This document shows, piece after piece, positions 10,003 through 50,612 of a stretch of 64,000 nt of DNA; positions within the stretch are counted from its first letter, which is position 1, and each line of letters begins with the position of its first letter. A program made the translations under genes and the position numbers. The notes beneath the pieces were generated by a model that did no database searches, was not told the origin of the DNA, and worked only from the letters and a program-made list of their open reading frames with translations. The stretch is from Candidatus Sysuiplasma jiujiangense (lineage in GTDB: Archaea; Thermoplasmatota; Thermoplasmata; Sysuiplasmatales; Sysuiplasmataceae), in contig JAHEAD010000001.1 of the NCBI GenBank assembly GCA_019721075.1, positions 186,001-250,000 of the forward strand, read 5' to 3'.

Positions 10003-10030
10003 AAAAAAATGGAAAGGGGTCTTTGGACCC
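10003..10030 (-). terminator. Hairpin plus U-tract downstream of the DUF5679 gene
   Basis: Minus strand reads GGGTC-CAAA-GACCC then CTTTCCATTTTTTT. Confidence 0.55.
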
Positions 10031-10056
10031 GGTTTAATTTATGAATGTTAAACAAT

Positions 10057-10215: not shown

Positions 10216-10406
10216 CTTTTGCGTCCATTCACAAGGTATTATAAAAAAGCATCGTGAAAACAAGCATTATTTGCTCTCAATTTTACCTCAAAGCCAGCTA
10301 AAAATAAGCGATGCAGGGGGCATGAAGCATCCTTCGCTATGAAAGAATCGTTAATAAATTATTAATATAAAGGTTATCAACCTAGTCCGCACTACCAGGT
10401 ACAGTC

Positions 10407-13384: not shown

Positions 13385-14710
13385 ATGACCATAAATGAAA
13401 GACAAGAATTGCTCGATTGGCTATACGGTCTGGAAAATTTTGGCATCAAACTTGGTCTGGAAAATATGAAACGACTCCTTGATGGCCTTGGAAATCCGCA
13501 GAACAATTACCGGACCATACATGTTGCAGGCACAAATGGTAAAGGTTCAGTATGTGCAATAACCGCCTCGGTGCTTTCCTGTGAGGGTTATGTCACCGGC
13601 CTTTACACATCTCCTCACTTTGTTGATTTCGAAGAGAGAATCAAGATCGATGGCAAGTGCATAAGAGAAGAGGAATTGCTTCGATACGCAGGGGAGGTGA
13701 GGGAAATTTCTGAAAAGATATTCGGGAACGACCGAAGACAGATAACATTTTTCGAGATAACGACGGCAATTGCATTTCTCTATTTTTCGGAAAAGAGAGT
13801 GGATTATGCCGTCATTGAGGTTGGGCTCGGAGGTAGACTCGATGCAACGAATGTCATAGTCCCCGAAATATCGGCGATTACACACATCGCGCTGGAGCAT
13901 ACAGAATATCTTGGAGGGACGCTCAGAGAGATTGCCAGAGAGAAAGCAGGCATAATTAAGAGAAATGTTCCGGTTTTGACGGCGGAGACTCTTAATGAGC
14001 CTATTGAGGAATTCGTTAAGATATCAAATGACAGAGAAACAATTCTTGAAAAAGCCTACGAAATTGTTGACATAATAACGAAGGAGAACACATTCGGATA
14101 CCTCGAATTCAGCTCCTACGGAATATCTGCCCATGAAAACCTGAAGTGCCGGCTCTGGGGAGAATATCAGATACCAAACGTAACGCTGGCAATTGCGATC
14201 ATTGAAAAAATGCAGCGTATGGGTACATATGTATCAGACCGTGCTGTAATGAATGGAATTGAATCAGTGTTCTGGCCCGGAAGATTGCAAATAGCCAAAA
14301 ATAGCAGGGGGGGAGTATACATATTTGATTCTGCACACAATCCGGATGCAGCACGCGCCCTGTCCAAGTCTGTTTCAGACGTCACTCGGGAAAAATTTCT
14401 CTGTGTTATAGGGGTGCTCTCCGATAAGAATCTTGACGGCATTATTGAATCCATTGCCCAAATATCGGATGACTTCATTTGTGCGGAGCCAGTTACATCC
14501 AGAGCAAGAAGTGTAGACGACATAATTAAAGCAGTTGTGAGGGCAGGAAAGAAAGCAGTGAAAGCCAATAGTGTTCCCAACGCAATGAATATTGCGGATG
14601 AGGCTGCAGGTGGGAGAAAGGTTCTTGTTACTGGCTCATTGAGAACGGTAGGTGAAGCGATGAAATGGTGGTTTGATAGTTTTGGTGAGAGATTATGGAG
14701 AAATGACTGA
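13385..14710 (+). CDS. folC: Folylpolyglutamate synthase/dihydrofolate synthase
   Basis: HVAGTNGKGS, YTSPHF, EVGLGGRLDATN, DSAHNPD and VTGSL motifs. Confidence 0.95.
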   Translation: MTINERQELLDWLYGLENFGIKLGLENMKRLLDGLGNPQNNYRTIHVAGTNGKGSVCAITASVLSCEGYVTGLYTSPHFVDFEERIKIDGKCIREEELLRYAGEVREISEKIFGNDRRQITFFEITTAIAFLYFSEKRVDYAVIEVGLGGRLDATNVIVPEISAITHIALEHTEYLGGTLREIAREKAGIIKRNVPVLTAETLNEPIEEFVKISNDRETILEKAYEIVDIITKENTFGYLEFSSYGISAHENLKCRLWGEYQIPNVTLAIAIIEKMQRMGTYVSDRAVMNGIESVFWPGRLQIAKNSRGGVYIFDSAHNPDAARALSKSVSDVTREKFLCVIGVLSDKNLDGIIESIAQISDDFICAEPVTSRARSVDDIIKAVVRAGKKAVKANSVPNAMNIADEAAGGRKVLVTGSLRTVGEAMKWWFDSFGERLWRND

Positions 14711-15362
14711 TTTTGCGATCATGTTCGAAAGCCTCGAACGGTATTACGCCCAGCCTGGTCTGACAACAGCTCTAGAAAATATATCAAAAAATGAGAATGC
14801 CTTCCATGTTCTCATATCCACTGTTATTTCCCAGAGGAACAGAGACGAAATTACAGAGAAAATATCCAGGAGGCTATTCAAAAAATACCCTACTATCAGC
14901 CTTCTGGCCAAAGCATCACCCGGCGACATTGCAAAATGCATTCGCCAGTCCAACTTCTATAGAACGAAGTCTAGAGCGATAAGCGAAATATCAAAAAGAA
15001 TAGAATTGGATTATAATTGTAACGTACCGGAGAATATCGAAGAACTGATGGAACTGCCTCTCGTTGGACGGAAGACGGCAAACTGCGTACTGGTTTATGC
15101 CTTCAGGAAGAGCGCGATTCCGGTAGATACTCACGTACACCGGATATCAAATAGAATTGGAATTGTTGAAAGTAGGGATCCGAAGGAAACGGAAGAGCAA
15201 CTCAGGCAGAAGATACCTGAAATATACTGGATGAGACTGAACAATATCTTTGTGATCCATGGCAAAAAAATATGCAAGCCACTTCATCCACTGTGCTACA
15301 AATGCCCCATTTCCACGCATTGCGGGTATCCAAAGAAGAGCGTTCGGGATAGGAAGAAATAG
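14703..15362 (+). CDS. nth: Endonuclease III (HhH-GPD, 4Fe-4S)
   Basis: LPLVGRKTA, PVDTHVHR, and the Fe-S loop CKPLHPLCYKCPISTHC. Confidence 0.93.
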   Translation: MTDFAIMFESLERYYAQPGLTTALENISKNENAFHVLISTVISQRNRDEITEKISRRLFKKYPTISLLAKASPGDIAKCIRQSNFYRTKSRAISEISKRIELDYNCNVPENIEELMELPLVGRKTANCVLVYAFRKSAIPVDTHVHRISNRIGIVESRDPKETEEQLRQKIPEIYWMRLNNIFVIHGKKICKPLHPLCYKCPISTHCGYPKKSVRDRKK

Positions 15363-15439
15363 ACCCGGGCACGTATAAAAAGCCGGAACTTTCAGTAACA
15401 TACTTTAAGAACCTCTGATATCATAACGCGGTTTCCGAA

Positions 15440-15513
15440 GCGAGGTTAGTCTAGTCTGGTTAGGACATTAGCTTGCCAAGCTAGTAAGGCGGGTTCAAAT
15501 CCCGCACCCCGCA
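15440..15513 (+). tRNA. tRNA-Gly (GCC), CCA not encoded
   Basis: Cloverleaf: acceptor GCGAGGT/ACCCCGC (one mismatch), D-stem GTCT/GGAC, anticodon arm TTAGC-TTGCCAA-GCTAG, T-arm GCGGG-TTCAAAT-CCCGC. Confidence 0.93.
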
Positions 15514-15900
15514 TCTGCAGAAATCCCTGATTTCCCATCGTTCATTTTTTTCATCTTTCCAAAAGTGATTTTCCAATACGCTGATTGAACGTTCCACCGT
15601 TTCTACCATCCAAGGATGTGTGTAATGCTGTGTACTCCGGATATCCTCGCGACCGGCTGCAATTTGGACCTCCCGCATTTAAACGCCGCGCCTTATTACG
15701 TATGTCGCATAGAGAAACGTCTCAGGGCATGCGGTTGCATATTGGGGTTTCTGGCTCTGATGCCTTCCTCCTTGATAACCTTCCTGATAATTTCCCTCAC
15801 ACTCAATGTCAAAAGGGTCGCTGAGCTCCTGAAGAGAGTTGAGGAGTGACGCCTAACAACAGTCGAATCCCTCGTAGGATTACCAAGAATGTTCTCGCTT
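15481..15900 (-). pseudogene. Tyrosine recombinase/integrase C-terminal remnant
   Basis: Manual translation across a 2-nt frameshift and a stop: ...NMQPHALRRF/YATYVIRRGV*MREVQIAAGREDIRSTQHYTHP, matching HxLR...LGH...T..Y. The reading frame runs into the tRNA 3' half. The 5' boundary is approximate. Confidence 0.8.
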
Positions 15901-21270: not shown

Positions 21271-22140
21271 CTATCTGCCGTCTACGACTGTGCTCTCATA
21301 ACCTGCATCAGATACCGCTTTAGCCGCGTCTTCCGGTCTGATAGCTCTGGGAATCTTCGCGGTCGCCCTTTTATCCTTCAGAGATACCATGGCCGATTCG
21401 GCCCCAATTCCTTCAAGGGCCGACTTTACGGTCGTTACACAACTGTCGCACGTCATTCCTTCAATCTTGAGAGTGACGTCGGTAAAATCCACGTCGTCGC
21501 CTTTGAGTTTGTTTGCTACTACGGAAAGTTGAGACTTAACACGAGGTTCCTTTACCTGTTTAAGAAATTTTCCCACAATTCCGGGAAGATATTCCCTGCA
21601 GCATTTACCGCTTGGATTGGTTACAAAACACCATTTTCCGGTACCTGCCCTCGTATATTCCTCAATATCCTCGAGAGAATCACAACATCCTTTGTTAAGT
21701 ATCTCGTTCTTTATGTCGTCCTCCGTAATGCCAATACAGTAACATACAGGCCTGGGAGAAGCCAATTCCTTGAGTGCGTAAGGCGTTTTCACTTCATCAC
21801 TGAAGAAATATATCCCGTCCCGGTTGCTGTAATAAATTACATCGCAGCTAGACTCTGAAGAAAAGCGATATGAGTCATTTATGAGAGCCCAGTATTTTAC
21901 ATCCACATGATTTCTTATTGTGGTAGGGAAAGCTTTCGTTCCCTTTGTACCGCAGACGAGGCAATATTTTTCCTCATCACCTTTGTCAGCCAATGTAGCT
22001 TCCAGAAACTCCTTTGATGGAGTCACTCTCTTTCCTGTCACTGATTTCATTCTAAATTCATCTCTGTTCATTCTTAATCCGGCAAAGGTCCGCAAATCAG
22101 CTTTATCGTTTTCATTTGTTGCTGAGGCAATCTGCTTCAA
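21271..22140 (-). CDS. copZ: CopZ-type copper chaperone: Zn/[2Fe-2S] N-terminal domain plus C-terminal HMA domain
   Basis: CLVCG, PVCYC and GKWCFVTNPSGKCC as in Archaeoglobus CopZ-NT; HMA motif GMTCDSC. Confidence 0.85.
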   Translation of the reverse strand: MKQIASATNENDKADLRTFAGLRMNRDEFRMKSVTGKRVTPSKEFLEATLADKGDEEKYCLVCGTKGTKAFPTTIRNHVDVKYWALINDSYRFSSESSCDVIYYSNRDGIYFFSDEVKTPYALKELASPRPVCYCIGITEDDIKNEILNKGCCDSLEDIEEYTRAGTGKWCFVTNPSGKCCREYLPGIVGKFLKQVKEPRVKSQLSVVANKLKGDDVDFTDVTLKIEGMTCDSCVTTVKSALEGIGAESAMVSLKDKRATAKIPRAIRPEDAAKAVSDAGYESTVVDGR

Positions 22141-24718: not shown

Positions 24719-25075
24719 TCAGGAACCGCAGCCGCAACCGCAGCCTCCGCCGCCACAACTGCAGCCGGCGCCGTTGCTCACTCTGGCATTGGGATTATTT
24801 ATCGTGAAGCCGCCGCCTTCGATGGTTTCTACATAGTCGATCTGAGTGCCTTCCAGATGATTGGCGCTCTCCTTATCAACGACTATCTTGACACCATCCT
24901 GAACAAGTTCTATGTCTTGGGAAGGATCGGTATTTTCATCAAACGCCATACCGTATCTGAAGCCGTGGTCAGCAGCAGTCATATACACCCTGAGTAGAAG
25001 GTTCTTATTATCCTGTTCGGCGATAAGAGACTTGACCTTGTCTGTTGCCTTTTCGGTCAATACTAAACTGACCAT
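24719..25075 (-). CDS. A-type Fe-S carrier (IscA/SufA/HesB family)
   Basis: LTEKA, F.YGMAFD, IDYVE...GGF.I.NPN, and a Cys/Gly-rich tail CSCGGGGCGCGCGS. The usual GGCSG Cys is absent. Confidence 0.85.
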   Translation of the reverse strand: MVSLVLTEKATDKVKSLIAEQDNKNLLLRVYMTAADHGFRYGMAFDENTDPSQDIELVQDGVKIVVDKESANHLEGTQIDYVETIEGGGFTINNPNARVSNGAGCSCGGGGCGCGCGS

Positions 25076-37674: not shown

Positions 37675-38100
37675 TCAGGCTTCATTCTCCACAGTCTCAT
37701 TAACGAATTTTGCAGCATCTTCGGAGAGGCGCCAGGAACGTACTCCTGCTATGCTGCCGAGCATGACACTGACTATAAGGTATGAATAAGAAGGCCACGC
37801 ATTTTTCCTGTCAAATTCCGACGGAACAGCCGGATGATCCGGATGTGAATGGTAATAGCCGAGAATACTGAGACCTTTTGCATTTGCGTCCCTTTCGCAT
37901 TTCATAATCTCCGCCGGATCTATTACATACCTGGTTTTCCGTGAATTATGCGATGAGTTTTTTGCCGGAAGAGTTGCAGAAATTATTCTGTCCTGATCCC
38001 CTCTGCCTAAAAGGAACCCGCAGCACTCCTCGGGATATGTCTGGACCGCATGTGCATATACCTCTTCCAGAAGATTTTGCCTGATGCGGAGCGTCATCAT
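37675..38100 (-). CDS. mec: JAB/MPN+ metalloprotease (Mec/CysO-cysteine peptidase family)
   Basis: PEECCGFLLG and YHSHPDHPAVPSEFD give an intact E...HxH-x7-S-x2-D JAMM motif. Confidence 0.92.
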   Translation of the reverse strand: MMTLRIRQNLLEEVYAHAVQTYPEECCGFLLGRGDQDRIISATLPAKNSSHNSRKTRYVIDPAEIMKCERDANAKGLSILGYYHSHPDHPAVPSEFDRKNAWPSYSYLIVSVMLGSIAGVRSWRLSEDAAKFVNETVENEA

Positions 38101-38129
38101 CTATCCCCCATGTAAAGGTGGATGCACTA

Positions 38130-39362
38130 TCATGCAAAAACTTTTCTGACCGTGTCGAGTGCTTCTGCAAGGGCGTCTATGTCTTTCCTGCCATTGTAAA
38201 GATAGAATGATGCACGGGAGGCAGAAGATATATTGAGCCTGTCCATCAGCGGCTGAGCGCAGTGATGGCCGGAGCGGATGGATACCCCCTGTCTGCCAAG
38301 TATCTCTGCTGTGTCATGACCATGAATGCCATTGATGTTGAACGCTATGACACCGCTCCTCTCCTCGACATCCTTCGGACCGTAAATTTCGATGTCGTTT
38401 CTTTCAGAGAGTCTAGACAGCGCATAAGAAAGCAACAGTTTGTCGTATTTCTCCACATTTTCCATTCCAATGGAGTTGAGATAGTCCACTGCGGCACCGA
38501 GCCCGACGGCACCGCTGATATTAGGGGTTCCGGCCTCAAACTTATATGGCGGGACATTCCAGCTGCAGCTGTTCTGATGTACTTCGCTTATCATTTCACC
38601 TCCGCCAAAGGCTGGTTCAATTGCCCTGAGATGCTCCGACTTCCCGTATAGGGCGCCAATCCCGGTTGGTGCGAGCATTTTATGACCGGACAGCGCAAAA
38701 AAATCACAGTCCAGTTTTTCTACATCCACTGGCATGTGAGGTGCAGACTGCGCTCCGTCTACAATAAGTAAAGAGGAATTATCATGAGCGAGATCGGCTA
38801 TTTCTCTGACAGGATTCACGGTTCCGAGAACATTCGATACCTGTGCAACCGAGACTACTTTCGTCCTATCTGTGAGCTTTGCCCTGAAATCCTCCATATC
38901 AAGGCGCCCCTCACTGTCAATATCCGCGAACTTCAGCCTTATTCCCCTCCATGCGAGCATCTGCCATGGCACAACGTTTGAATGATGCTCCATGACGGTC
39001 GTGAGGACTTCATCACCCGGCTTGAGTTTCCATATGCCAAGACTCAATGCCAGTACGTTTATCGCTTCAGTCGTTCCACGAAGAAAGATTATTTCATCAG
39101 GAGAGCCTGCATGGAGGAAGCCGGCAACCTTGCCTCTTGCATTTTCATAGAACTCAGTCGCTTCTTCCCCGAGCGGATAAATTCCCCTATGGACATTCGC
39201 ATTATGCATTCTTTCGAATGAACTTACCGCATCTATCACCTGAAATGGCCTCTGGCTCGTTGCGGCACTGTCCAGGTAGATGAGCTTCTCCCTTCTTTCG
39301 GAGAATATAGGAAAATCACCAATCAGAGGGGACACGTCTCCAAGTGTTTCCGGGAGCTTCAT
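38130..39362 (-). CDS. sufS: Cysteine desulfurase, group II
   Basis: YLDSAATSQ, SGHKM (PLP Lys), FEAGTP and RSGHHCA motifs. Confidence 0.96.
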   Translation of the reverse strand: MKLPETLGDVSPLIGDFPIFSERREKLIYLDSAATSQRPFQVIDAVSSFERMHNANVHRGIYPLGEEATEFYENARGKVAGFLHAGSPDEIIFLRGTTEAINVLALSLGIWKLKPGDEVLTTVMEHHSNVVPWQMLAWRGIRLKFADIDSEGRLDMEDFRAKLTDRTKVVSVAQVSNVLGTVNPVREIADLAHDNSSLLIVDGAQSAPHMPVDVEKLDCDFFALSGHKMLAPTGIGALYGKSEHLRAIEPAFGGGEMISEVHQNSCSWNVPPYKFEAGTPNISGAVGLGAAVDYLNSIGMENVEKYDKLLLSYALSRLSERNDIEIYGPKDVEERSGVIAFNINGIHGHDTAEILGRQGVSIRSGHHCAQPLMDRLNISSASRASFYLYNGRKDIDALAEALDTVRKVFA

Positions 39363-39371
39363 GATAAAGCC

Positions 39372-39677
39372 TCAAACTTCAACATAGATATACCCGTCTT
39401 CAATCTTGACATTATATTTTTTCAGCGGCTCCGTCGCAGGAGGACTTTCCACTGCCCCTGTTTCCAGATTGAAGCGAGACAGGTGAAGCGGGCATACAAC
39501 TGCGTTGCCCATAAGTATACCCCTTGACAGGTCTGCATCCTCATGTGTGCAGGTAGCATCCAGAGCATGATAATTGTCCCCCAGACGAATTATCATTATA
39601 TCGTTGCCGTCAAGCTCTACCTTCATTATCTTCGCCGAATCCATATCCTTTAAAGAGAGAGTGCGCTTAAACGGCAT
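39372..39677 (-). CDS. Rieske [2Fe-2S] ferredoxin
   Basis: CTH...CPLH Rieske ligand motifs. Confidence 0.92.
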   Translation of the reverse strand: MPFKRTLSLKDMDSAKIMKVELDGNDIMIIRLGDNYHALDATCTHEDADLSRGILMGNAVVCPLHLSRFNLETGAVESPPATEPLKKYNVKIEDGYIYVEV

Positions 39678-39684
39678 CGGTAAA

Positions 39685-41088
39685 TCACCTGTACTTGTAG
39701 TGGCCCTCGAATATGCTTTCTCCGGGTCCCTTGATCTGGTCCTTCACATACTTCTCAAACTCCAGCTCATCAAGATGCCTGGAAGCCTGGAGGGAGATGA
39801 CATTGTTCCACTTGTCCTCGATCTGAAATCGCATCTTGTCCCTGACAGTGTCGATGGGTATCCTTGAGATTACAGGATCAAAGAATCCAAGGACAAGCAG
39901 CTTTTCAGCTTCATTTCTGTCAAGACCTCTTGTCTGAAGATAATATAACTGCTGTTCGTCCATCTGCGAAACAGATGCCGAATGGGTCGCCTTGACACCG
40001 TTTGTGAGTATCTCCAGACCGGGAATGGCATCGCATTTTGCATCTTTGCTGAGAAGCATTCCGTGCTCGGCAAGATAGGCGCTTGTATTGCCCGCCTTCT
40101 CGCCGATACGTATCATGCCCCTTAGCAGGGCTCGCGATTTTCCCTTCAGGACACTTCTGACAGTTATTCTTCCGCTCGTTGATTCGACATTGTGATGCAG
40201 ATCGGTAACGACGTCAAACTTCTGGCTCCCGTTGCCGAACAGTATTTCATAGTCTTCCGTTGAAGCTCCCTGGCCGGCAAAATCTGTGTCTGCCCTTGCC
40301 CTGGTTATATCCGCTCCCATATAGCTTGAAACCCAGTGTATTCTGCTGTCTCTGCCCGCAACAGCGCGTTTATTGCTCAGGAAAATCGAGCCCGCAGACA
40401 AATTTTCAAGAGATGCGTGATGCAGCACTGCTCCCTGGGACAGTATGACATCGGTCACCGTGGAGAAAAGCGACTTTTCATTGAAATTTTCGACCGAAAG
40501 TATTTCCTCTGTTACGTTTGCACTGCTTCCCTCGTTCATCATTATAATGTTCTGCTGAAACTGGGCTTTGCCGGGGGAATCCTCTATGTGCACTATGTGA
40601 ACAGGAGTGTCAAGTACTGTATTCTTTTCCACCTTCAGGAAAAAGCCGGAGGTGAAAAGCGAATTGTTCAGTGCCACATATATGTCGTCCTGAGGTCTCA
40701 GACCCTTACTCTTAAAATATCGCTCAAAAATATCAGGATATTTTCTGGCTGCTTCACCAAGTTCCTCGAATATTACTCCGTTAGGAACTGAACCTGTTTT
40801 GAAGACGGAACCCCCTGAGTGAAGCATGAACAGGCTGCTGTCACCCATCTCGGCATATCTGTCCGGGATCCTGTCTGAAAGTTCAGGATTGCGGGCGAGC
40901 GAAATGCCTGACGGATCAAATTTTGTCAGCTGCTCATATTTGGTGTAAAGCGGATTGGGCTCGGCTCTGGAACTCCGGAATACGGAAATTGCCTCCTTCC
41001 TGTAGTTTGATAGCCAGCCCGGTTCATGTGCCAGAGAGGGAAGATCCGCCTCTCCCGTCTGCAGTATATTCTGTGTGATTGTGGTCAT
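39685..41088 (-). CDS. sufD: Fe-S cluster assembly protein SufD
   Basis: DAIPGLEI, VKATHSASV and LYYLQTRGL motifs. Confidence 0.92.
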   Translation of the reverse strand: MTTITQNILQTGEADLPSLAHEPGWLSNYRKEAISVFRSSRAEPNPLYTKYEQLTKFDPSGISLARNPELSDRIPDRYAEMGDSSLFMLHSGGSVFKTGSVPNGVIFEELGEAARKYPDIFERYFKSKGLRPQDDIYVALNNSLFTSGFFLKVEKNTVLDTPVHIVHIEDSPGKAQFQQNIIMMNEGSSANVTEEILSVENFNEKSLFSTVTDVILSQGAVLHHASLENLSAGSIFLSNKRAVAGRDSRIHWVSSYMGADITRARADTDFAGQGASTEDYEILFGNGSQKFDVVTDLHHNVESTSGRITVRSVLKGKSRALLRGMIRIGEKAGNTSAYLAEHGMLLSKDAKCDAIPGLEILTNGVKATHSASVSQMDEQQLYYLQTRGLDRNEAEKLLVLGFFDPVISRIPIDTVRDKMRFQIEDKWNNVISLQASRHLDELEFEKYVKDQIKGPGESIFEGHYKYR

Positions 41089-41112
41089 GCACGATTCACC
41101 CGCGGGAGTTAT

Positions 41113-42519
41113 TCACCCGACTGATCCCGTCATCTCAAGCTGTATTAGCCTGTTGAGCTCAACAGCATATTCCATCGGTAGCTCCTTTGAAAACACATCG
41201 AGGAATCCCATGACAATCATATTAAGCGCATCTGCTTCGCTCAGCCCCCTTGACATGAGATAGAAGAGTTGCTCTTCGCTGATCTTTCCGACGGTTGCTT
41301 CATGTGTTGTCGAAGCCGTCTCCTCATTGATGGTGTTGTACGGGTAGGTATCTGTCCTGGACTTCTCATCAAGCAGGAGTGCATCGCATCTTACGCTGCT
41401 CTTTGCATTTGTAGAGCCCTTCTCTATATGAAGGAGACCGCGGTAGGTTGTTCTTCCTCCGTCCTTGCTGACGCTCTTAGATGTTATTCTTGAAGTTGTC
41501 TCAGGTGCAAAATGCAGTATCTTCGCGCCCGCATCCTGGTGCTGATCCCTGCCTGCAAATGCGACTGATATCACTTCCCCCTTGGCCCTCGGGCCGAGAA
41601 GGTAGACAGACGGATATTTCATCGTAAGTTTTGACCCGAGGTTACCGTCAATCCATTCCACGGTGGCATCCTCATGTGCGAATGCCCTCTTTGTCACCAG
41701 ATTATATACGTTGTTGGACCAGTTCTGTATCGTTGTGTAGCGTACATAGGCACCCTTCTTTGCTATGATCTCCACAACTGCAGAATGCAGCGAGTCCTTG
41801 GAATATACAGGCGCAGTGCATCCCTCTATGTAGTGCACCCGGCTGTTCTTCTCCGCAATAATGAGCGTTCTTTCAAACTGACCGACGCTCTTCGCGTTTA
41901 TCCTGAAATATGCCTGCAGCGGTATATCAACTTCCACTCCTTCAGGGACATATATGAAACTGCCTCCACTCCAGACTGCGCTGTTCAGCGCTGCAAATTT
42001 ATTATCCTCAGGCGGTATTATCGTTCCGAAATGTTCTCTGAATATTTCCGGGTATTCCCTGAGTCCTTCGTCCGTGCCCAGAAAAATGACGCCCTTCTTG
42101 CTTAAATCCTCCCTGATCTTGTGATAGACGACTTCGCTGTCATATTGAGCGCCGACGCCGCCAAGAAACTTCTTTTCAGCTTCGGGTATTCCCAGCTTGT
42201 CGAATGTCCTCTTCACATAGTCGGGCACGTCGTCCCAGCTGTCACTGTTCTTCCCTGACGGTGCCATGTAGTAGTAGATGTCGTTGAAATCAATCTCCTT
42301 TAGATCCTCGCCCCAGGGGGGTAGCGGTTTCTTGTAGAAAATGTCAAGAGATCTGAGCCTGAAATTTTTCATCCATTCAGGTTCCTTTTTAAATCTGGAG
42401 ATGGCCTCCACTACCTCTCTGTTAAGGCCCTTCTGCGTCTGAAATACGTACTTTGCGTCCTCATCATGGAAGCCGTATCTGCTGTAGTCACGATCCATTC
42501 CCTGTTCATTTATTACCAT
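41113..42519 (-). CDS. sufB: Fe-S cluster assembly protein SufB
   Basis: [33 protein letters not shown] and HEATV motifs. Confidence 0.97.
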
Positions 42520-42568
42520 TTTATCTCTTCTCCTCAGCATTCATCGTCACACAATTGAAACAGTGATC

Positions 42569-43990
42569 CTAATAACGCGGCATCGCAGGGTCCACCTTCT
42601 CCGCCCATGCGTTAATCCCTCCCTTCAAGTTCTTTACCTTTCGGAACCCTATATCCTTCATGAAGTTCAGTGCATATGCACTTCTCTGCCCCACCTTGCA
42701 GTACAGAACAATCTCATCGGCCGTGCTAAGCTCGCTGACCCTTGTGGGTATATCGTTGAGTGGAATCAGTCTAGACCCTTCGATGCGGCATATCTCCCAT
42801 TCCTGCGGCTCCCTGACATCGACAAGCACAATATGCTCTCCTTCCCTCATCCTTCTGCTCAGCTCTTCGGGGGAAATACTGTCCTGCTCGTTCTGTTCGT
42901 CGTGCCTAATACCGCAGAATTGTTCATAATCGATGAGTTCTCTGATGGTCGGATTTTCGCCGCACACGGGGCAGCCTGGATTTTTTCTGAGCTTGAGCTC
43001 CTTGAAGCGCATCTTCATTGCGTCGAACAGGAGAAGCCGGCCAATGAGAGGTTCCCCTTCACCCAGTATGAGTTTTATTGCCTCCATGGCTTGGAGTGTC
43101 CCGATGGTCCCCGGAAGGACGCCGACAACTCCGCCTTCTGCGCATGACGGAACGAGACCCGGGGGCGGTGGACTTTCGTAAAGGCACCTGTAGCAAGGCC
43201 CCTGCTTTGCATCAAAAACAGATACCTGCCCCTCAAACCTGTAAATTGAACCGTATACATTTGGCTTTCCCAGCAGAACACATGCGTCATTTACGAGATA
43301 GCGGGTTGGAAAATTATCGGTTCCATCAATAACGATGTCGTATTTGCCTATTATGTCTATGGCATTCAGTGAATTAAGCTGAACCTCATGCTTCACAACT
43401 TTAATGCCTGGGTTTATTCCCTTGATCTTCTCTTCGGCAGAGTCAATCTTCTTTCTTCCGACGTCCTTCTGGGAATGAATAATCTGCCTCTGCAGATTGC
43501 TGAAATCAACCGTGTCGAAATCCACTATTCCCAGTGTTCCGACGCCGGCCGCAGCGAGATAAAGCAGCAGCGGGGAACCCAAGCCGCCAGCTCCTATAAC
43601 AAGAACCTTAGCCCGTTTCAGTTTTAGCTGACCTTCGAGTCCTACTTCCGGCAGAAGCAGGTGTCTGCTGTATCGCTGTATATCTTCATATGTAAATTCG
43701 CTCGCCACGCTGCTCGAGCCGCCCGCGATCGAGGGGATTATTGAAACGATGTCTCCTTCCTTGACGGACGTCCTGCCTCTTTCCAGATAACGTATGTCCT
43801 CTTCATTGAGATACACGTTGACGAAATTCCGCATCTTTCCGTTTTCGTCAAAAATGTGATGCCTGAGCTGCGGGCTAGATCCTGCCAGCTTCTGCAGCAC
43901 TTCATCAACATTTGACCCCTCGACCTCCACTGATTCGGAGTTTCCGACGTACTGCCTGAGCGGTGTTGGTATCATTACCCTGACTTTCAT
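42569..43990 (-). CDS. Three-domain fusion: MoaD/CysO/SAMP-type ubiquitin-like domain (91 aa, ends IAGG), MoeB/E1 adenylyltransferase and rhodanese
   Basis: The beta-grasp domain MKVRVMIPTPLRQY...VNVYLNEEDIR...IIPSIAGG continues in frame into RYSRHLLL, GAGGLG, SNLQRQ, CYRC, PSCAEGG, CPVC and rhodanese YCKVGQRS. ATG 43990 overlaps the cysM stop (ATGA). Confidence 0.93.
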   Translation of the reverse strand: MKVRVMIPTPLRQYVGNSESVEVEGSNVDEVLQKLAGSSPQLRHHIFDENGKMRNFVNVYLNEEDIRYLERGRTSVKEGDIVSIIPSIAGGSSSVASEFTYEDIQRYSRHLLLPEVGLEGQLKLKRAKVLVIGAGGLGSPLLLYLAAAGVGTLGIVDFDTVDFSNLQRQIIHSQKDVGRKKIDSAEEKIKGINPGIKVVKHEVQLNSLNAIDIIGKYDIVIDGTDNFPTRYLVNDACVLLGKPNVYGSIYRFEGQVSVFDAKQGPCYRCLYESPPPPGLVPSCAEGGVVGVLPGTIGTLQAMEAIKLILGEGEPLIGRLLLFDAMKMRFKELKLRKNPGCPVCGENPTIRELIDYEQFCGIRHDEQNEQDSISPEELSRRMREGEHIVLVDVREPQEWEICRIEGSRLIPLNDIPTRVSELSTADEIVLYCKVGQRSAYALNFMKDIGFRKVKNLKGGINAWAEKVDPAMPRY

Positions 43991-44919
43991 AAACTCGCCT
44001 CCCAGAATCTCTCGGCCAGATAGCGCTGACCGCTGTCGGGAAAGATTGTAACAATGCTGCTCGGCCCTTCCCTCTCGGACAGTTCCATGCATGCCTTAAG
44101 GACGGCTCCGGAACTGACACCAATCAGGAGTCCTTCCTTCCTTGCTGCCTCAATAACTGTTTTCTGCGCGTCTTCTGTTCTGACGAAAATATGCTCGTCT
44201 GCAAGTCTTTCATCATAAATACCCGGTTTAATCGACGAGTCCATTCTCTTCAGACCCTCTATTCCATGGAGAGGGCTGTCCGGTTCCACCGCTATTGTCT
44301 TTACACCAGGGATGCGCTCTTTGAGAATCCTGCTCGTTCCGGTAAAGGTGCCTCCGGTTCCCAAGCCAGCGACAAAATAATCGACATGCCCTCCTGTCTG
44401 CCTGATTATTTCCTGCCCTGTACCCCTGTAATGTGCAAGCCAGTTGTTCCTGTTGTTATACTGGTCTGCATAATAATAGAGTTCGGGATTTTCTGAATAC
44501 ATCTTTTTCGCAAGCCGCTGAGCCCCATCCGTTCCTTCCATTGGATCGCTGAGTATCACCTCGGATCCGTATGCTCTCAGCATTTCAAGTTTTTCCTTGC
44601 CGACATTTCCCGGGACTACAATGGCTGACCTGAATCCCCTGACAGCACATATCATCGAGTATGCGATGCCTGTATTGCCTGACGAAGCGTCAAGGAGAAT
44701 CTTTTCCTCCGTCAGGCTGCCGCTCTTCACAGCGTCCTCAATGATAGCGCATGCTGCCCTGTCCTTCACGCTGCCTCCCGGATTGAACCATTCTGCCTTT
44801 GCAAAAACGCTTGTAGCGCTTGAACCTGAAAACATTCGTTCAAGCTTTATAAGGGGAGTATTTCCGATTCTGGAAAGAATGTTTTCGCCGTATTCCAGTC
44901 TGAGATCGTTGCATATCAT
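43987..44919 (-). CDS. cysM: PLP-dependent cysteine synthase (CysM/O-phosphoserine sulfhydrylase-like)
   Basis: IGNTPL, NPGGSVKDR, SSGNTG, GLGTGGT and FPDSGQRYL motifs. ATG 44919 overlaps the sufU stop. Confidence 0.9.
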   Translation of the reverse strand: MICNDLRLEYGENILSRIGNTPLIKLERMFSGSSATSVFAKAEWFNPGGSVKDRAACAIIEDAVKSGSLTEEKILLDASSGNTGIAYSMICAVRGFRSAIVVPGNVGKEKLEMLRAYGSEVILSDPMEGTDGAQRLAKKMYSENPELYYYADQYNNRNNWLAHYRGTGQEIIRQTGGHVDYFVAGLGTGGTFTGTSRILKERIPGVKTIAVEPDSPLHGIEGLKRMDSSIKPGIYDERLADEHIFVRTEDAQKTVIEAARKEGLLIGVSSGAVLKACMELSEREGPSSIVTIFPDSGQRYLAERFWEASL

Positions 44920-45299
44920 TGCTGCGCACCTACCCGTGTGGCTATGGCTTCCTGCAGTGTCTTGAGAGACAGTGTCGCGCACTTCATTCTGACAGCGCTC
45001 AGCGGAATGTGAAGCATCTCCCTGACAAATTCAGGGGACATCCTACCGACATCCTCAAGGCTCATCCCCTTAACATGGTCCGTAAGCATTGATGCGGATG
45101 CCTGGCTTATCGCACACCCTCTGCCGTCGAATGCAATATCACTGATAGCACCGTTCTCCACCTTGACATAAATAGTGATATCGTCCCCGCAAACCGGATT
45201 ATTGCCATGGCTGAACAAGTCCGGCTTTTCTATCTGCTTCTTGTTGTGGGGGCTCTTGTAATGTTCAATTATCTCTTCCTGGTAAATGTCAAATGCCAT
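44916..45299 (-). CDS. sufU: SufU/IscU-type sulfur-transfer or scaffold protein
   Basis: NPVCGD, GCAISQASAS and RMKCA; three conserved Cys. Confidence 0.92.
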   Translation of the reverse strand: MAFDIYQEEIIEHYKSPHNKKQIEKPDLFSHGNNPVCGDDITIYVKVENGAISDIAFDGRGCAISQASASMLTDHVKGMSLEDVGRMSPEFVREMLHIPLSAVRMKCATLSLKTLQEAIATRVGAQQ

Positions 45300-45312
45300 C
45301 TTTACACTCCGT

Positions 45313-46068
45313 TCAGTTGGTTATTTCCGGTTCTTTGAGCCAGTCATAACCCTTTTCCTCAAGTTCCTTTGCAAGTTCTTTCCCGCCGCTCTTGACGACG
45401 CGACCGTCAACAACCACATGCACGAAATCCGGCGTTATGTACTGAAGGAGGCGCTGGTAATGGGTAACGAGTATCAGACCGATGTCCGGTCCTGCCATTG
45501 AATTGATTGCCGATGCAACAATCCTGAGTGAATCGATGTCCAGCCCGCTGTCCGTCTCATCGAGTATGCCAAACTTTGGCTGTAGGATTGCCATCTGCAG
45601 AACCTCAGCCCTCTTTTTTTCTCCTCCGGAGAAACCCTCATTTAGCGACCTGCCGATGAAGTTTTCGTCAATGCCTAGCTGATTTACCTTCTCTTTGAGA
45701 AGTCTGAAGAATTTTGTCGGACTCAGCGGATTTGCAGGATGAGCACTGTTATAAGCTATCCTCAGAAAATTACCCAGGCGTACGCCGGGGACCTCTACTG
45801 GGTACTGAAAACCCAGAAAAAGTCCAGCCCTTGCCCTCTTGTCCGATGTCATCGCCAGGATGTCCTGCCCATCGAGCAAAATCTGACCGCCGGCAATCTG
45901 ATACTTAGGGTGACCCATCAGGGCATAGCTCATCGTACTTTTGCCGGAGCCGTTAGGGCCCATTATTGCATGTATCTCTCCCTGCCTGACAGTAAGATTT
46001 ATTCCCTTGAGTATCTGTTTTCCTTCTATGTTTACCTTCAGTTCCCTGATTTCGAGTTCCGATGTCAT
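45313..46068 (-). CDS. sufC: Fe-S cluster assembly ATPase SufC
   Basis: GPNGSGKST, FQYPVEVPGV, NEGFSGGEKKR and LDETDSGLD motifs. Confidence 0.97.
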   Translation of the reverse strand: MTSELEIRELKVNIEGKQILKGINLTVRQGEIHAIMGPNGSGKSTMSYALMGHPKYQIAGGQILLDGQDILAMTSDKRARAGLFLGFQYPVEVPGVRLGNFLRIAYNSAHPANPLSPTKFFRLLKEKVNQLGIDENFIGRSLNEGFSGGEKKRAEVLQMAILQPKFGILDETDSGLDIDSLRIVASAINSMAGPDIGLILVTHYQRLLQYITPDFVHVVVDGRVVKSGGKELAKELEEKGYDWLKEPEITN

Positions 46069-46097
46069 TCTTCATACCTCAGTTAAAGCGGGTGATA

Positions 46098-46153
46098 CAT
46101 TATTCGCATTATTCGATAAGACCCATCGTATTTAAACATATCTTAGTGTCTAA
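46098..46153. promoter_or_regulatory. Candidate operator elements in the divergent sufC/regulator promoter
   Basis: Tandem repeat CATTATTCG x2 (46098-46115) and inverted repeat TTAG-N3-CTAA (46143-46153), lying between AT-rich TATA-like boxes. Confidence 0.35.
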
Positions 46154-46201
46154 ACTGCATAAATTTAATATATGAACAGAGTGGTATGATATCAGGTCAG
46201 T

Positions 46202-46834
46202 ATGGACAATGATATATCCCTTCTTGGCGAATCAAAAACAAAGATTATCACTCTACTTGGTGCAGGTGAGCGGTCAGGGCAGGAGCTGGCAAGGCAGCTT
46301 AATATCAACACGACAGCTGTGAGGGAGCACATCGATGTCCTTGAGAGAATGGGGCTGGTTACCTCAAAGTTCGTCAATCTTGGTGTCGGCAGGCCCAGAA
46401 AAATATACAGCCTGACAACTTCCGGAATCGAACTGCTGCCCAAGCACTATGATATTCTCCTCAATCTTCTCATCAAGAAAATCCATGAGAAAGGAGGCGA
46501 CATCCTTTTGAGCCAGCTTATATCGGACGTTGTCAGGGAGTTCAAAGACAGTGTTGAAAGTACTGATTTATTGACGACAGAAATGCGCATAAAGAGCGTT
46601 GTTTCATTTCTGAACAAACTTGGGTTCATGGCTACGGTAGAGAAGGACGGTGACAAGATCTTTGTCGTCAGGCACAACTGCATTTTCAATAAGACAGCGA
46701 AACTTTATTCCGGTGTGCTGTGCAACGAGTGTGACAGTTCCTTTGTCAAGGAACCGATAGGACCGGCAGAGGTTGAGCTGATTTCCTGTATCGGAAAGGG
46801 GGACACTTCCTGCAAGAATCTTATCAAATCGTAA
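46202..46834 (+). CDS. SufR-like wHTH transcriptional regulator with a Cys-rich C-terminal domain
   Basis: ELARQLNINTTAVREHI...GRPRKIYSLT...LPKHY, then HNC, CNEC and C-x6-C. Divergent from sufC. Confidence 0.85.
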   Translation: MDNDISLLGESKTKIITLLGAGERSGQELARQLNINTTAVREHIDVLERMGLVTSKFVNLGVGRPRKIYSLTTSGIELLPKHYDILLNLLIKKIHEKGGDILLSQLISDVVREFKDSVESTDLLTTEMRIKSVVSFLNKLGFMATVEKDGDKIFVVRHNCIFNKTAKLYSGVLCNECDSSFVKEPIGPAEVELISCIGKGDTSCKNLIKS

Positions 46835-46885: not shown

Positions 46886-47911
46886 ATGATAGGCTTTTTT
46901 AGCCATATGGAAGGTCATCGCTTCCTCAAGATAGCTACCATAGCACTTGCAGCACTGCTACTCATGCCAGTCCTTGCCTCGTCACTTGCCCTTGGAGACA
47001 ATGGGCAGAAAGACAGGGAGGTGTCGGTTGACACATCAAATGACGGATATTTTCAAATACTGTCGAAGGTCCAGGGGCAGCCAGGAAATGAGTTCGAGCT
47101 TCAGTTTGCGGGAAATACACTTCTGATGACATTCACAAACGAGTCCTCCCAGCAGAACATATCTCTTGAGTTTTCTATAAGCCTTCATAAGCTGGTATAC
47201 ACCGATTCCTCCGGCAGCAACACTACACTCATATCATTTGAGGACTCAGGATTCTCGATGATGGGCAATTCAATGCTTGGCCAGTATGCGCCGGTTAATG
47301 CCAGCGAAAAAGTTTTTGGCATACTCGCTTCAGGAAATGGCGCAATTTTCATGATGGTTGTTCAGGTGAACGGAAAGCCGGTGCAGGTAATCTCTCCTGT
47401 AACAAACAGTCCGTTTGAACTTTTCCCGAATGAGGTCAAGATCTCTTTTGTAATACTGACTACAAATCTCTCAAAGGTAATGTCGATATCACCGCTGCAG
47501 ACACCTATCAGCCAGCCACAGGGCAACATTTCCATAGTGATGAGTGTGAGTTCGCCATACGCGACACCCTATCTTTCAACATCGCAGTCCGATATACAGC
47601 TGAATTTTGGCCAGGGCAACAGCACTGGCTATTTTGCATGGAACAACAGTGCGTTCACAACCAACAGCTTAGGCAATAACTGGAACAAAAGCAGAGTAAG
47701 CTACCAGTTTAACGGGGAGGAACTTACACTTACATATCCTGCCGCGTTGAAAATAGTTCATGACCCGGTGATTGCCATTTCCCCCCAGTCCCTTTCAGGT
47801 GCCATATCTACAGCAGTCAAAGCTGCCGGGAACATAATAATATACGGAATCGCGTTGACACTCGCTGTCGTCCTTGTGGCTTCATCCTCCCTTTACAGAC
47901 GGAGACGCTAA
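46886..47911 (+). CDS. Secreted, C-terminally membrane-anchored protein of unknown function
   Basis: Signal peptide, Ser/Asn-rich beta-like body, YP...IVHDP motif, TM helix plus RRRR. Confidence 0.7.
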   Translation: MIGFFSHMEGHRFLKIATIALAALLLMPVLASSLALGDNGQKDREVSVDTSNDGYFQILSKVQGQPGNEFELQFAGNTLLMTFTNESSQQNISLEFSISLHKLVYTDSSGSNTTLISFEDSGFSMMGNSMLGQYAPVNASEKVFGILASGNGAIFMMVVQVNGKPVQVISPVTNSPFELFPNEVKISFVILTTNLSKVMSISPLQTPISQPQGNISIVMSVSSPYATPYLSTSQSDIQLNFGQGNSTGYFAWNNSAFTTNSLGNNWNKSRVSYQFNGEELTLTYPAALKIVHDPVIAISPQSLSGAISTAVKAAGNIIIYGIALTLAVVLVASSSLYRRRR

Positions 47912-48845: not shown

Positions 48846-49322
48846 ATGAAAATTTCAATAGATGGCTGGGAAACAGGAATCAAATTTGTGGCGGGCCACT
48901 TTCTGCCCACGATAGAGAAGTGCAGCAGGCTTCACGGTCATAACTATGCTATGGGCCTGATAATTGAGGGCGAACCGGACAGGAACGGCATAATACTCGA
49001 TTTCATTGAGCTGAAGAAAGCTGCCCACCGGATTGTTGACAGTATCGACCATAAAATGGTTCTTCCATCAGACGGTACGTCGATGAAAATAACGAAGTTC
49101 GGTGAAGAGTATACCGTCAAATTTAACGGCAAGAGATACGTCATTCCGGCATCGGATGTGGTAATCCTGCCATTGATAAACGTAAGCGCAGAAGAACTCT
49201 CGAGATACTTTGCATTTGAACTCAAGAAGATCGGCGTCTTCGGAAAAAATATTTACTCGTTCACGGTGATCGTTTCGGAAGGAAGGGGACAGGAGGCATT
49301 GTGGGAGGAAAGGTTAAGGTGA
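48846..49322 (+). CDS. queD: 6-carboxytetrahydropterin synthase
   Basis: F.AGHFL, C.RLHGHNY, DH and SAEEL motifs. Confidence 0.92.
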   Translation: MKISIDGWETGIKFVAGHFLPTIEKCSRLHGHNYAMGLIIEGEPDRNGIILDFIELKKAAHRIVDSIDHKMVLPSDGTSMKITKFGEEYTVKFNGKRYVIPASDVVILPLINVSAEELSRYFAFELKKIGVFGKNIYSFTVIVSEGRGQEALWEERLR

Positions 49323-49987
49323 CTGATGCTGTTCTTCTCCTCTCAGGAGGGCTTGATTCGACGACGGTGGCTGCACTCCTCTCCTCGGAAAAATATTCAA
49401 TCAGGGCCCTTACTCTAAATTACGGCCAGAGGCATTCAAAGGAGCTGGAATCGGCTAAGAGAGTTGCCAGATACTACAGCGTTGAAGAACACATCATTAT
49501 TGATCTAGATCTTTCCCTTATAGGGGGAAGTGCGCTCACCGACAGCTCAACACCTTTGCCTGCTGCAGGTGCTGCCGGCATACCCTCCACCTATGTTCCT
49601 GCAAGAAATACTGTTTTCCTTTCCATTGCGCTTGGTCTGGCTGAAGCCAGAGGTTGCAGATTGATCTATACAGGAGTAAATGCGGTTGACTACAGCGGTT
49701 ATCCGGATTGTCGCCCCGAGTTCATTGATGAGTTCAACAGGCTCTCTGCTGTGGCAACAAAGGTAGGTGTCGAAAAAAGAGCAATAAAAGTGATTGCTCC
49801 ACTGATTAAAATGGAAAAATCCGATATTGTCAGGTTGGGCAAAGCGAAAGGAGCGCCATACGAGTTGACTTGGAGCTGTTACAAAGGGGGGAAAAGAGCC
49901 TGCGGCGTTTGCGATTCGTGCGTTTTGAGGCTGAAGGGATTCAGGGACGCCGGAATAGAGGACCCTGTCGAATATGAAAATAAATGA
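49319..49987 (+). CDS. queC: 7-cyano-7-deazaguanine synthase
   Basis: SGGLDS, TYVPARN, GYPDCR and TWSCY...CGVCDSC motifs; GTGA overlap with queD. Confidence 0.96.
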   Translation: MTDAVLLLSGGLDSTTVAALLSSEKYSIRALTLNYGQRHSKELESAKRVARYYSVEEHIIIDLDLSLIGGSALTDSSTPLPAAGAAGIPSTYVPARNTVFLSIALGLAEARGCRLIYTGVNAVDYSGYPDCRPEFIDEFNRLSAVATKVGVEKRAIKVIAPLIKMEKSDIVRLGKAKGAPYELTWSCYKGGKRACGVCDSCVLRLKGFRDAGIEDPVEYENK

Positions 49988-50612
49988 AATATTCAAGTCA
50001 GTGCAGGGCGAGGGATTGCTTATAGGAATTCCAACGCTCTTCATCAGGACTGCCGGATGCGACCTGCGCTGCGTATGGTGTGATACTCCTTACGCACTGC
50101 TGAAGAGCCAGGGAACAGAGTGGTCTGTTGAAGATATAATCAGCGAGGCTGATAGGCATGGCACTAGCGAAGTCTGCCTAACGGGAGGTGATCCGCTAAT
50201 GCAGATGGAAGATTCATTGGAAGTGATATCGGCACTCATCGGAAAAGGTTACAGAGTTTTGCTGGAAACTAGCGGTGCCTACACCATAGAGCACATGCCT
50301 TTAACAGAGAAACTGATAATAAGCATGGACCTGAAACTGCCAGGTTCGGGCATGGTGGACAGAAACAGATATGAGAACATTTCGTTACTAAGGAAGTGGG
50401 ACCAGCTCAAATTTATAATTGCCGACAGGAAAGATTACGATTATGCAAAGCGTCTGCTTTTGGAATACAGCATCCGCTGTGAGGTCATAGCGACACCCGT
50501 TGGCGGAAAGGATCTCAGGTGGCTTGTGGAGAGCGTACTTGAAGATGATTTAAAATTAAGGGTACTCCCACAGTTGCACAAATATATATGGGGTGATGAA
50601 AGAGGCAGATGA
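49974..50612 (+). CDS. queE: 7-carboxy-7-deazaguanine synthase (radical SAM)
   Basis: SVQGEG, CDLRCVWCDT, TGGDP and PQLHK motifs. Confidence 0.95.
   Translation: MKINEIFKSVQGEGLLIGIPTLFIRTAGCDLRCVWCDTPYALLKSQGTEWSVEDIISEADRHGTSEVCLTGGDPLMQMEDSLEVISALIGKGYRVLLETSGAYTIEHMPLTEKLIISMDLKLPGSGMVDRNRYENISLLRKWDQLKFIIADRKDYDYAKRLLLEYSIRCEVIATPVGGKDLRWLVESVLEDDLKLRVLPQLHKYIWGDERGR

Follow-up and report, generated by a model that had tools for sequence, protein, structure and literature searches.

Why would the iron-sulfur (Fe-S) cluster assembly operon of an archaeon carry, between its own genes, the parts of a pathway that builds cysteine on a protein carrier? The question is raised by a stretch of 64,000 nucleotides from the uncultured archaeon Candidatus Sysuiplasma jiujiangense, a member of the Thermoplasmata from an acid environment (contig JAHEAD010000001.1, positions 186,001 to 250,000), here called the window, in which nine co-oriented minus-strand open reading frames at positions 37675-46068 follow one another in the order sufC-sufU-cysM-[Ubl::E1::rhodanese]-sufB-sufD-Rieske-sufS-JAB, Ubl being a ubiquitin-like carrier domain. 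The simplest reading is that the operon would make the cysteine that its own SufS consumes. On balance, we consider it probable that the only SUF system of this archaeon comes with a built-in, bacterial-type protein-thiocarboxylate cysteine pathway of the CysO/MoeZ/CysM/Mec kind, supply and demand being co-expressed. A cysteine-making route and a cysteine-consuming desulfurase would then stand under one promoter, and the cassette concerned is found in more than 100 genomes.

The operon and its fused carrier

Families were assigned by profile searches, and scores are given in bits against the curated cut-offs of NCBIfam equivalog models and Pfam. The genes, in operon order, are as follows.

45313..46068, minus strand: sufC, Fe-S assembly ATPase, first operon gene (TIGR01978, 342 against a cut-off of 212.8)
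44916..45299, minus strand: sufU, sulfur-transfer partner of SufS, 13 nucleotides after sufC (TIGR01994, 121.1 against 92.5; PF01592, 95.6)
43987..44919, minus strand: cysM-type cysteine synthase dependent on pyridoxal phosphate (PLP), 310 amino acids (PF00291, 226.8; TIGR01138, 322.6, below the cut-off of 394.2)
42569..43990, minus strand: CysO-like carrier, MoeZ-like E1 adenylyltransferase and rhodanese in one open reading frame of 473 amino acids (PF02597, 50.5; PF00899, 284.4; PF00581, 75.4; single frame)
43718..43990, minus strand: carrier domain of the fusion (beta-grasp, ThiS/MoaD family), residues 1-91, ending PSIAGG (PF02597, 50.5)
41113..42540, minus strand: sufB, scaffold subunit (TIGR01980, 710.7 against 346.4)
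39685..41088, minus strand: sufD (TIGR01981, 233.7 against 222)
39372..39677, minus strand: small Rieske-type [2Fe-2S] ferredoxin (PF00355, 60.1)
38130..39362, minus strand: sufS, cysteine desulfurase (TIGR01979, 546.3 against 475.1)
37675..38100, minus strand: JAB/JAMM metalloprotease, Mec-like, last operon gene (PF14464, Prok-JAB, 92.6)

Reading frames and profile matches bear out the gene order and positions given in an earlier note on this DNA, and the packing is tighter than the gaps of under about 50 nucleotides described there: in operon order the gaps measure 13, -4, -4, 28, 24, 7, 9 and 29 nucleotides (maximum 29). Both -4 junctions are ATGA overlaps, in which the sufU stop meets the cysM start and the cysM stop meets the start of the fusion gene; read from the DNA, these starts are an ATG at 44919 for cysM and an ATG at 43990 for the fusion gene. 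Because the gaps are so short, there is no room for separate promoters between the genes. SufB, SufC, SufD, SufS and SufU all score above their equivalog cut-offs, and the operon holds the only two SUFBD genes of the genome. The transcribed strand of the operon has a single run of at least six T, at 38697-38703 (minus) inside sufS, where it might affect archaeal termination before the JAB gene.

The carrier, E1 and rhodanese domains, all three of which had been recognized from the sequence, belong to one fused product of 473 residues that starts at the ATG at 43990, not to the maximal reading frame of 507 residues. It consists of the 91-residue carrier ending in PSIAGG, an eight-residue linker (SSSVASEF), the E1 and the rhodanese, with no internal stops. 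The primary translation product carries 382 residues in frame after Gly91 and has no free C-terminal glycine for adenylation, and activation of the carrier therefore requires its release by cleavage after Gly-Gly91; the predicted cleavage point lies after Gly91, before the linker. The cysteine module, which had been called complete, has all four functions, but its completeness depends on cleavage that releases the carrier from the fusion. The rhodanese active-site cysteine (C431) and the CxxC pairs are invariant in the 14 sequences aligned, and a database search found the carrier-E1-rhodanese fusion kept in thousands of proteins. The closest solved structures to the carrier domain are CysO-type carriers (4n6e_B, E 8e-14; 3dwg_C, E 2e-13).

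Comparison of 90 loci places the fusion in a wider pattern. The carrier is fused to the E1 in 50 of them, separate in 36 and not found nearby in 4, and a P-[SA]-[IV]-A-G-G motif is retained in all 87 loci where a carrier was found. Nearly all separate carriers (34/36) bear 1 to 15 or more residues past Gly-Gly, and two end directly after it. Since the carrier is nearly always made as a precursor and a JAB gene is nearly always present, trimming by JAB would be a general need of the cassette and, judged from these loci, the fusion is the extreme case of a carrier precursor. The translated JAB protein has an intact and readable metal-binding motif, E...HSHx7SxxD, in what we take to be the JAMM definition (E24 and HSHPDHPAVPSEFD). 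It may both cut after Gly91 and free cysteine from the carrier, by analogy with JAMM proteases that cleave QbsE/QbsD and SAMP fusions. MoaX cleavage in M. tuberculosis is reported in the title of PMC4326299, and the predicted JAB cleavage leans on that title together with the former relatives. Such trimmed precursors likewise have residues or a whole protein past Gly-Gly, to be removed before activation, whereas here the extension is the activating enzyme itself and its cleavage is predicted.

A model of CysM in complex with the carrier domain has a score of 0.66, and the highest-scoring of three controls has 0.00; of 157 solved complexes 116 attained that mark, as did 2 of 215 mismatched pairs. 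Between runs at least 93% of contacts agree, the predicted local distance difference test value (pLDDT) of the partner is at least 83, and residues 85-90 of the modelled carrier tail contact residues 80-81 of CysM, in the active-site loop. A like complex from M. tuberculosis has already been solved (3DWG), so this pass may reflect likeness and is not proof of carrier use. An attempt to decide between O-phosphoserine and O-acetylserine as substrate by likeness to solved enzymes was dropped, E. coli CysM outranking the M. tuberculosis enzyme.

Every part of the locus, and the cassette itself, is of a known kind; the unusual feature is their conserved combination with suf. Bacterial SUF operons with SufS and SufU, as generally known from Bacillus, share the SufC, SufB, SufD, SufS and SufU proteins that here pass the equivalog cut-offs, and differ from the present operon by its inserted cysM-fusion pair, its terminal JAB gene and a regulator that falls outside the cyanobacterial SufR equivalog. 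The protein-thiocarboxylate route to cysteine of M. tuberculosis was reportedly the subject of work by Burns in 2005. At the sequence level the operon has the same parts as the CysO/CysM/Mec+/MoeZ(R) set treated in the available portion of PMC3227635, namely a Gly-Gly beta-grasp carrier, an E1 with a C-terminal rhodanese, a CysM-type enzyme and a JAMM protease. It differs in its archaeal host, in the fusion of carrier to E1 and in having all parts in one operon inside suf, whereas moeZR (Rv3206c) lies far from cysM (Rv1336) in M. tuberculosis according to the same portion of that source. Operon type 4c of Iyer, Burroughs and Aravind 2006 (PMC1779556) combines ThiS/MoaD, E1-rhodanese, JAB and cysteine synthase; this is the same four-function cassette, and the cysM-JAB-carrier/E1 order of the 80 loci compared below corresponds to it. 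The accessible part of that paper lists type 4c for bacteria only and mentions a different Ubl-ThiF fusion, not the carrier-E1 fusion of this operon; within the same part, "SufS" and "desulfurase" occur 0 times. Likewise, "SufS" or "Suf" has 0 occurrences in the accessible part of Makarova 2010, and "thiocarboxylate" or "CysO" has 0 in that of Johnson 2021. Outside subscription journals, no publication was found that links CysO/MoeZ-type genes with suf or that describes the present arrangement in archaea, in agreement with the earlier note. The archaeal sulfur source for iron-sulfur clusters is stated to be open in the available part of Hidese 2024 (PMC11323500). As a compact and clonable system of nine genes, the operon lends itself to testing the carrier's sulfur donor, precursor cleavage by JAB and the tuning of cysteine supply to Fe-S demand.

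Conservation and bacterial relatives

The same nine-gene order, the divergent regulator and the flanking genes recur in all nine other genomes of the window's family (here f1; three genera), with some loci cut by contig ends and protein identities across the operons of 50-94%. Because order and regulator are kept in 9/9 family genomes, the arrangement is not a product of chance. A survey of 401 Thermoplasmata genomes, the window's own included, with the fusion E1 as query found this protein in 103 genomes and 5 of 35 families: in f1 (9/9, plus the window's genome), f10 (58/59), f22 (9/11), f25 (24/33) and f27 (2/3). It was found in none of the other 30 Thermoplasmata families. Three unpublished genomes (G097, G211, G301) are contained in the f10 and total counts. 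Gene order was sampled in 20 further loci, cut out without the unpublished genomes, together with the named Thermoplasmata contigs from the best-locus search.

Of 24 evaluable loci outside f1, 21 have suf genes next to the cassette, in three other arrangements (locus L148 was too short to judge). All five f25-type loci show a co-oriented sufB-sufC-sufD-sufU-(second sufB)-sufS-sufU-cysM-JAB-fusion array. The four f22 loci have sufC-sufS-sufU-cysM-JAB-fusion, divergent from sufC-sufB-sufD, and 11 of 13 evaluable f10-type loci place regulator-cysM-JAB-fusion back-to-back with sufC-sufS-sufB. Suf linkage is seen in one of the two f27 loci. Conservation in relatives had been set beforehand as a check on the arrangement, and both the family genomes and the loci outside f1 uphold it. 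The interleaving of cysteine and suf genes described earlier holds for the window's family only, whereas elsewhere the cassette appears as a core of sufS-sufU-cysM-JAB-fusion or in the back-to-back layout. With the cassette beside suf in different gene orders in other families, the interleaving in the window is, on comparative grounds, a family-specific reshuffle of an older, conserved neighborhood.

Two further observations concern the f10-type loci. In three of them (L140:15213-17657, L145:15294-17738 and L073:3161-5605), sufB matches come in two halves on one strand (residues 18-241 and 238-475) about 1.05 kb apart, a pattern that an intein or some other insertion in SufB would produce. The cassettes of L143 and L144 are decaying, and a stop codon inside the E1 match is reported for the genome of L144.

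For comparison with bacteria, the best 80 loci were taken at one genome per species; 77 of these are bacterial, mostly from Acidobacteriota, Gemmatimonadota and Bacteroidota, with the order cysM-JAB-carrier/E1. Thousands of bacterial proteins, with labels including Acidobacteria and Armatimonadota, share 62-65% identity with the fusion protein. SufB, SufC or SufD genes occur within the approximately 10-kb flanks of one of the 77 bacterial loci (L043), once weak SufC matches of 23-28% were discarded as generic ABC ATPases, and the module thus normally lies apart from suf in bacteria, as had been stated. In L043 and the acidobacterial L052 the cassette sits just upstream of genes for an Rrf2 regulator, IscS and IscU/IscA (in L052 an Rrf2-regulator-iscS-iscU-iscA array), and in L041, L051 and L101, of the same clade, desulfurase- or IscU-like matches follow the cassette, as seen from similarity matches alone.

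A tree of 111 E1-rhodanese sequences places 34 Thermoplasmata on one side of a branch and 77 bacterial sequences on the other (Shimodaira-Hasegawa-like approximate likelihood ratio test, SH-aLRT, 90.7, not starred), and each archaeal family forms a single group. The tree fits one interdomain transfer followed by vertical descent, most likely from bacteria to archaea given the much wider bacterial spread. Archaea would then plainly have acquired a metabolic cassette of bacterial origin and tied it into an operon with a core housekeeping role; were the coupling only positional, the locus would still illustrate neatly how an operon grows by gene transfer, but no more than that. Identity between SufS and proteins labelled Bacillus or Alicyclobacillus is 53-54%. 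Naming a donor for SufS was given up, as its matches beyond the window's family, at 53-58% identity, mix archaeal and bacterial labels.

Control region and genome content

The region between sufC and the divergent regulator gene spans 133 nucleotides and holds a block conserved across f1. Its features and the regulator are:

46131..46154: 24-base-pair inverted repeat TTTAAACA-N8-TGTCTAAA, candidate operator between two divergent promoters, from sequence and conservation
46129..46136, minus strand: TATA-like box TTTAAATA, 61-68 nucleotides upstream of the sufC ATG, overlapping the left half of the repeat
46164..46172, plus strand: TATA-like box TTTAATATA, 30-38 nucleotides upstream of the regulator ATG, conserved in f1
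46202..46834, plus strand: divergent SufR-like regulator with an N-terminal winged helix-turn-helix (HTH) and a Cys-rich C-terminal domain (HTH_11/HTH_5, about 30; MetOD1, 26.7)

Both TATA boxes were called from what we take to be the archaeal consensus. The inverted repeat is kept in all nine f1 intergenic regions, and 9 of 11 back-to-back (f10-type) regions contain its half-sites at identical spacing; the f10-type genomes are GC-rich, and the repeat is thus kept across two families of very different GC content. It has a single exact match in the 2.29-Mb genome, at the suf promoter. At one mismatch or fewer, the window holds 2 matches against 0.26 expected. A search of the whole genome for further regulon members gave four more one-mismatch sites, no more than a reversed-pattern control (5 against 6 per strand), so that no further members can be claimed. 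A shorter palindrome, TTAG-N3-CTAA, looked compensatory between two f1 genera; its left half is not conserved in f10, and it was replaced by the 8-N8-8 repeat.

The regulator had been called SufR-like, and an HTH protein does lie at 46202-46834, aligning over nearly its full length (residues 14-207 of 210) with the cyanobacterial SufR model TIGR02702; its score of 51.1 is well short of that model's cut-off of 178.8. Three cysteines (C160, C174 and C204) occur without exception in all 20 orthologues. Given the divergent placement, the invariant cysteines and the conserved repeat over the promoter, the protein may work like SufR even though it is not classed with that equivalog. Where the layout is back-to-back, the regulator stands at the head of the cysteine cassette, facing suf, which means that a shared control region is kept across layouts. 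In an f22 locus (L136:4874-5653, plus strand), the two divergent suf arrays are separated by the gene for a 259-aa HTH_3 protein, in the place that the SufR-like regulator takes in f1 and f10; the type of regulator thus differs between families.

Contigs in one RNA library labelled as a mine drainage metagenome cover portions of sufD/sufB, of the fusion gene, of sufU and sufC, and of the regulator gene, at 99% identity or more. As evidence of expression these may include DNA carry-over. Two further RNA runs of the same study gave only 33-nucleotide matches at 90-95% identity.

The genome assembly is 97% complete, in 55 contigs. CysM is the only cysteine-synthase-type gene among six PALP genes, the others being two dehydratases, a threonine synthase, a ThrC-like protein and TrpB. 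Neither a serine acetyltransferase (CysE; best score 19.8 against 210.65) nor SepCysS (best 25.2 against 365.25) was found above cut-off in the genome. A SerA-like gene adjoins a class-V aminotransferase gene, and this pair could supply O-phosphoserine. A NirA-family sulfite/nitrite reductase is encoded on contig C4; a sulfate assimilation route beside it was considered and set aside, no Sat-, CysH- or CysC-like neighbor being recognized among the open reading frames scanned.

Three further ThiS-family carriers are encoded elsewhere in the genome. On contig C45 (approximately 14342-15645; L106:5340-7015, minus), the gene for a ThrC-like PLP enzyme (465 aa, Cys-rich near its N-terminus) directly precedes that for a MoaD-type carrier ending AVSGG. 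This pair looks like the MetM/MetO thiocarboxylate route to homocysteine, listed for Streptomyces with MoeZ and Mec (Hasebe 2024) in Table 2 of GapMind 2026 (PMC13759103, available part). With its ThrC-like gene and then a MoaD-type carrier ending SGG, the pair in this genome would likewise need an E1-rhodanese and a JAB protein. It lies on a different contig from the suf operon, and its function is suggested by its neighborhood only; such a homocysteine route would depend on the E1-rhodanese and JAB of the suf operon. Another ThiS-family carrier (contig C23:12065-12301, plus strand) ends ...PVSGGL, and with this one residue past Gly-Gly it too would need trimming before activation. Contig C34 (approximately 9067-10959; L107) encodes a second E1 of 268 aa that lacks a rhodanese, with a weak JAB-family gene about 0.8 kb downstream, probably a native SAMP-type system separate from the transferred cassette. 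With the operon E1 as query, no rhodanese-fused E1 other than the operon's own was found in the genome.

Mechanism, competing explanations and surroundings

We hypothesize that the fusion protein is made as a precursor from which the JAB protease would cut the carrier free after Gly91. Going by what is known of the family, the E1 would adenylate the C-terminal glycine of the carrier and the rhodanese persulfide would turn it into a thiocarboxylate. CysM would condense this thiocarboxylate with serine in an activated form, for which O-phosphoserine is the probable choice since the search for a serine acetyltransferase found none; JAB would release the cysteine, and SufS and SufU would strip its sulfur for SufBC2D. 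Output of all nine genes would be set at one divergent promoter, where the Cys-rich SufR-like protein would bind the inverted repeat over the TATA box, and under such single control cysteine supply and demand would rise together. The operon E1-rhodanese and JAB would probably also serve the free-standing carriers, including the MetM/MetO-like homocysteine pair. The cassette may have entered the ancestor of the five Thermoplasmata families once, most likely from bacteria, and have stayed beside suf since. A functional coupling of cassette and suf gains real comparative support, as the cassette stays beside suf through four gene orders in Thermoplasmata. The same linkage speaks for the earlier proposal that one regulon couples cysteine synthesis to its use by SufS, whereas the single transcript that this implies is not evidenced by the RNA contigs.

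Several observations weigh against cysteine supply to SufS as the role of the cassette. No gene junction is bridged with at least 31 nucleotides on both sides by the RNA contigs (245-515 nucleotides, one run), and several parts are uncovered; the contigs are short and their cover partial, and nothing can be inferred from them on co-transcription or on the uncovered parts. CysM and the E1 score below their NCBIfam equivalog cut-offs (322.6 against 394.2, and 521.1 against 647 for the MoeZ model NF005902). Among solved enzymes, CysM is nearer in sequence to E. coli CysM (2bhs, 221 bits), which uses free sulfide or thiosulfate, than to the mycobacterial protein (3dki, 168 bits). Absences such as that of cysE are weaker for resting on a 97%-complete assembly in 55 contigs. 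Three loci have the cassette with no suf gene within approximately 6-9 kb (L021 and L149, from one f10 genus, and L138 from f27), and two f10 loci, L143 (no cysM) and L144 (neither cysM nor JAB), keep the E1, the regulator and suf genes, which implies uses of the E1 beyond cysteine synthesis. Trees of the shorter CysM and JAB proteins require 2 and 3 changes of the archaeal label, respectively, and these two genes do not show that the cassette was transferred whole in one event. What loads MoeZ-type rhodanese domains, including that of mycobacteria, is stated to be open in the available part of Voss 2011 (PMC3227635); were SufS the donor, the cysteine loop would be futile.

In a different explanation, sulfur would run in the opposite direction between the two halves of the operon: SufS/SufU persulfide would load the rhodanese and the E1 would make thiocarboxylates on several carriers (for homocysteine, molybdopterin and tRNA thiolation), and the linkage to suf would come from a sulfur source in common, not from cysteine supply. 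Such a general sulfur relay would account for the three further ThiS-family carriers, one of them directly after the ThrC-like gene on C45 in the manner of the MetM/MetO/MoeZ/Mec route (PMC13759103, available part), for the operon E1 as the only rhodanese-fused E1 found with that query, for the f10 loci that keep the E1 without cysM or JAB, and for the conserved core that sets sufS-sufU directly beside the cassette. Yet cysM, which is translationally coupled to the fusion gene, is retained by nearly every cassette, the carrier of the fusion resembles CysO and is modelled in the CysM active site, and with CysM present a SufS-fed loop would give no net cysteine. We regard the relay as rather unlikely to be the whole explanation; it is compatible with cysteine supply and is a live rival or complement to it. 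That a bacterial island came to lie next to suf by transfer into an ancestor, and that the two have simply remained neighbors without being functionally coupled, is improbable in our estimate. Such an accident would suit the 76 of 77 bacterial loci with no SufB, SufC or SufD nearby, a single Thermoplasmata origin compatible with one insertion event, and the loss of linkage in three archaeal loci, but it sits poorly with a linkage that survives four gene orders, including a reshuffled interleaving with 4-nucleotide overlaps, with a regulator and operator common to different layouts, and with the separate bacterial clade in which the cassette lies beside isc/suf genes.

Least credible of all, and hardly to be expected, is that the carrier serves as a SAMP-like tag on Suf proteins or other targets, with JAB as deconjugase. 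The SAMP1, UbaA and desampylase models do match weakly, with scores of 52.8, 356.2 and 89.7 that all fall below the respective cut-offs of 60, 450 and 130; cassettes linked to cysM in bacteria are the nearest relatives, a role in sulfur chemistry is indicated by CysM and by the rhodanese domain, and the separate E1 gene of C34, with its JAB gene about 0.8 kb downstream, is found elsewhere in the genome. Returning to cysteine supply for SufS, a bolder form of it, which we put forward as speculation with the odds against it, is that reduced sulfur is never free between uptake and cofactor, passing from rhodanese persulfide to carrier thiocarboxylate, carrier-made cysteine, SufS persulfide, SufU and SufBC2D, with Fe-S status setting sulfur assimilation for the cell as a whole. 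If so, the conserved sufS-sufU-cysM-JAB-fusion core would be a physical assembly line, and one Fe-S-sensing repressor would control cysteine synthesis and, via the shared E1 and JAB, methionine synthesis.

Next to the regulator lies a gene for a protein of 341 aa (46886-47911, plus strand), which was considered as a sulfur transporter and rejected, there being no family hit. Its N-terminus resembles a signal peptide, its body is rich in Ser and Asn, and a C-terminal anchor finishes with RRRR; it is kept after the regulator in the family at 29-55% identity and is probably a surface protein or glycoprotein. Further along, at 48846-50612 (plus strand), PTPS, QueC and radical-SAM (QueE-like) genes stand in a row, as for 7-deazaguanine (preQ0/archaeosine) synthesis, and at least the first gene of the row (48846-49322) has kept its position next to suf in relatives. 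A gene for an A-type Fe-S carrier (PF01521, 53.7 bits) is located outside the operon, approximately 12.6 kb away at 24719-25075 (minus strand), and one protein encoded at 21271-22140 (minus strand) combines CopZ-type zinc-binding, BFD-like [2Fe-2S] and heavy-metal-associated domains. Archaeal-type genes elsewhere in the window include those for RNase P Rpr2, the primase small subunit, prefoldin and diphthamide synthase, and near relatives carry the database labels Thermoplasmata or Methanomassiliicoccales archaeon. The window begins with a fragment of an IS66-family transposase gene (5-706, plus strand).

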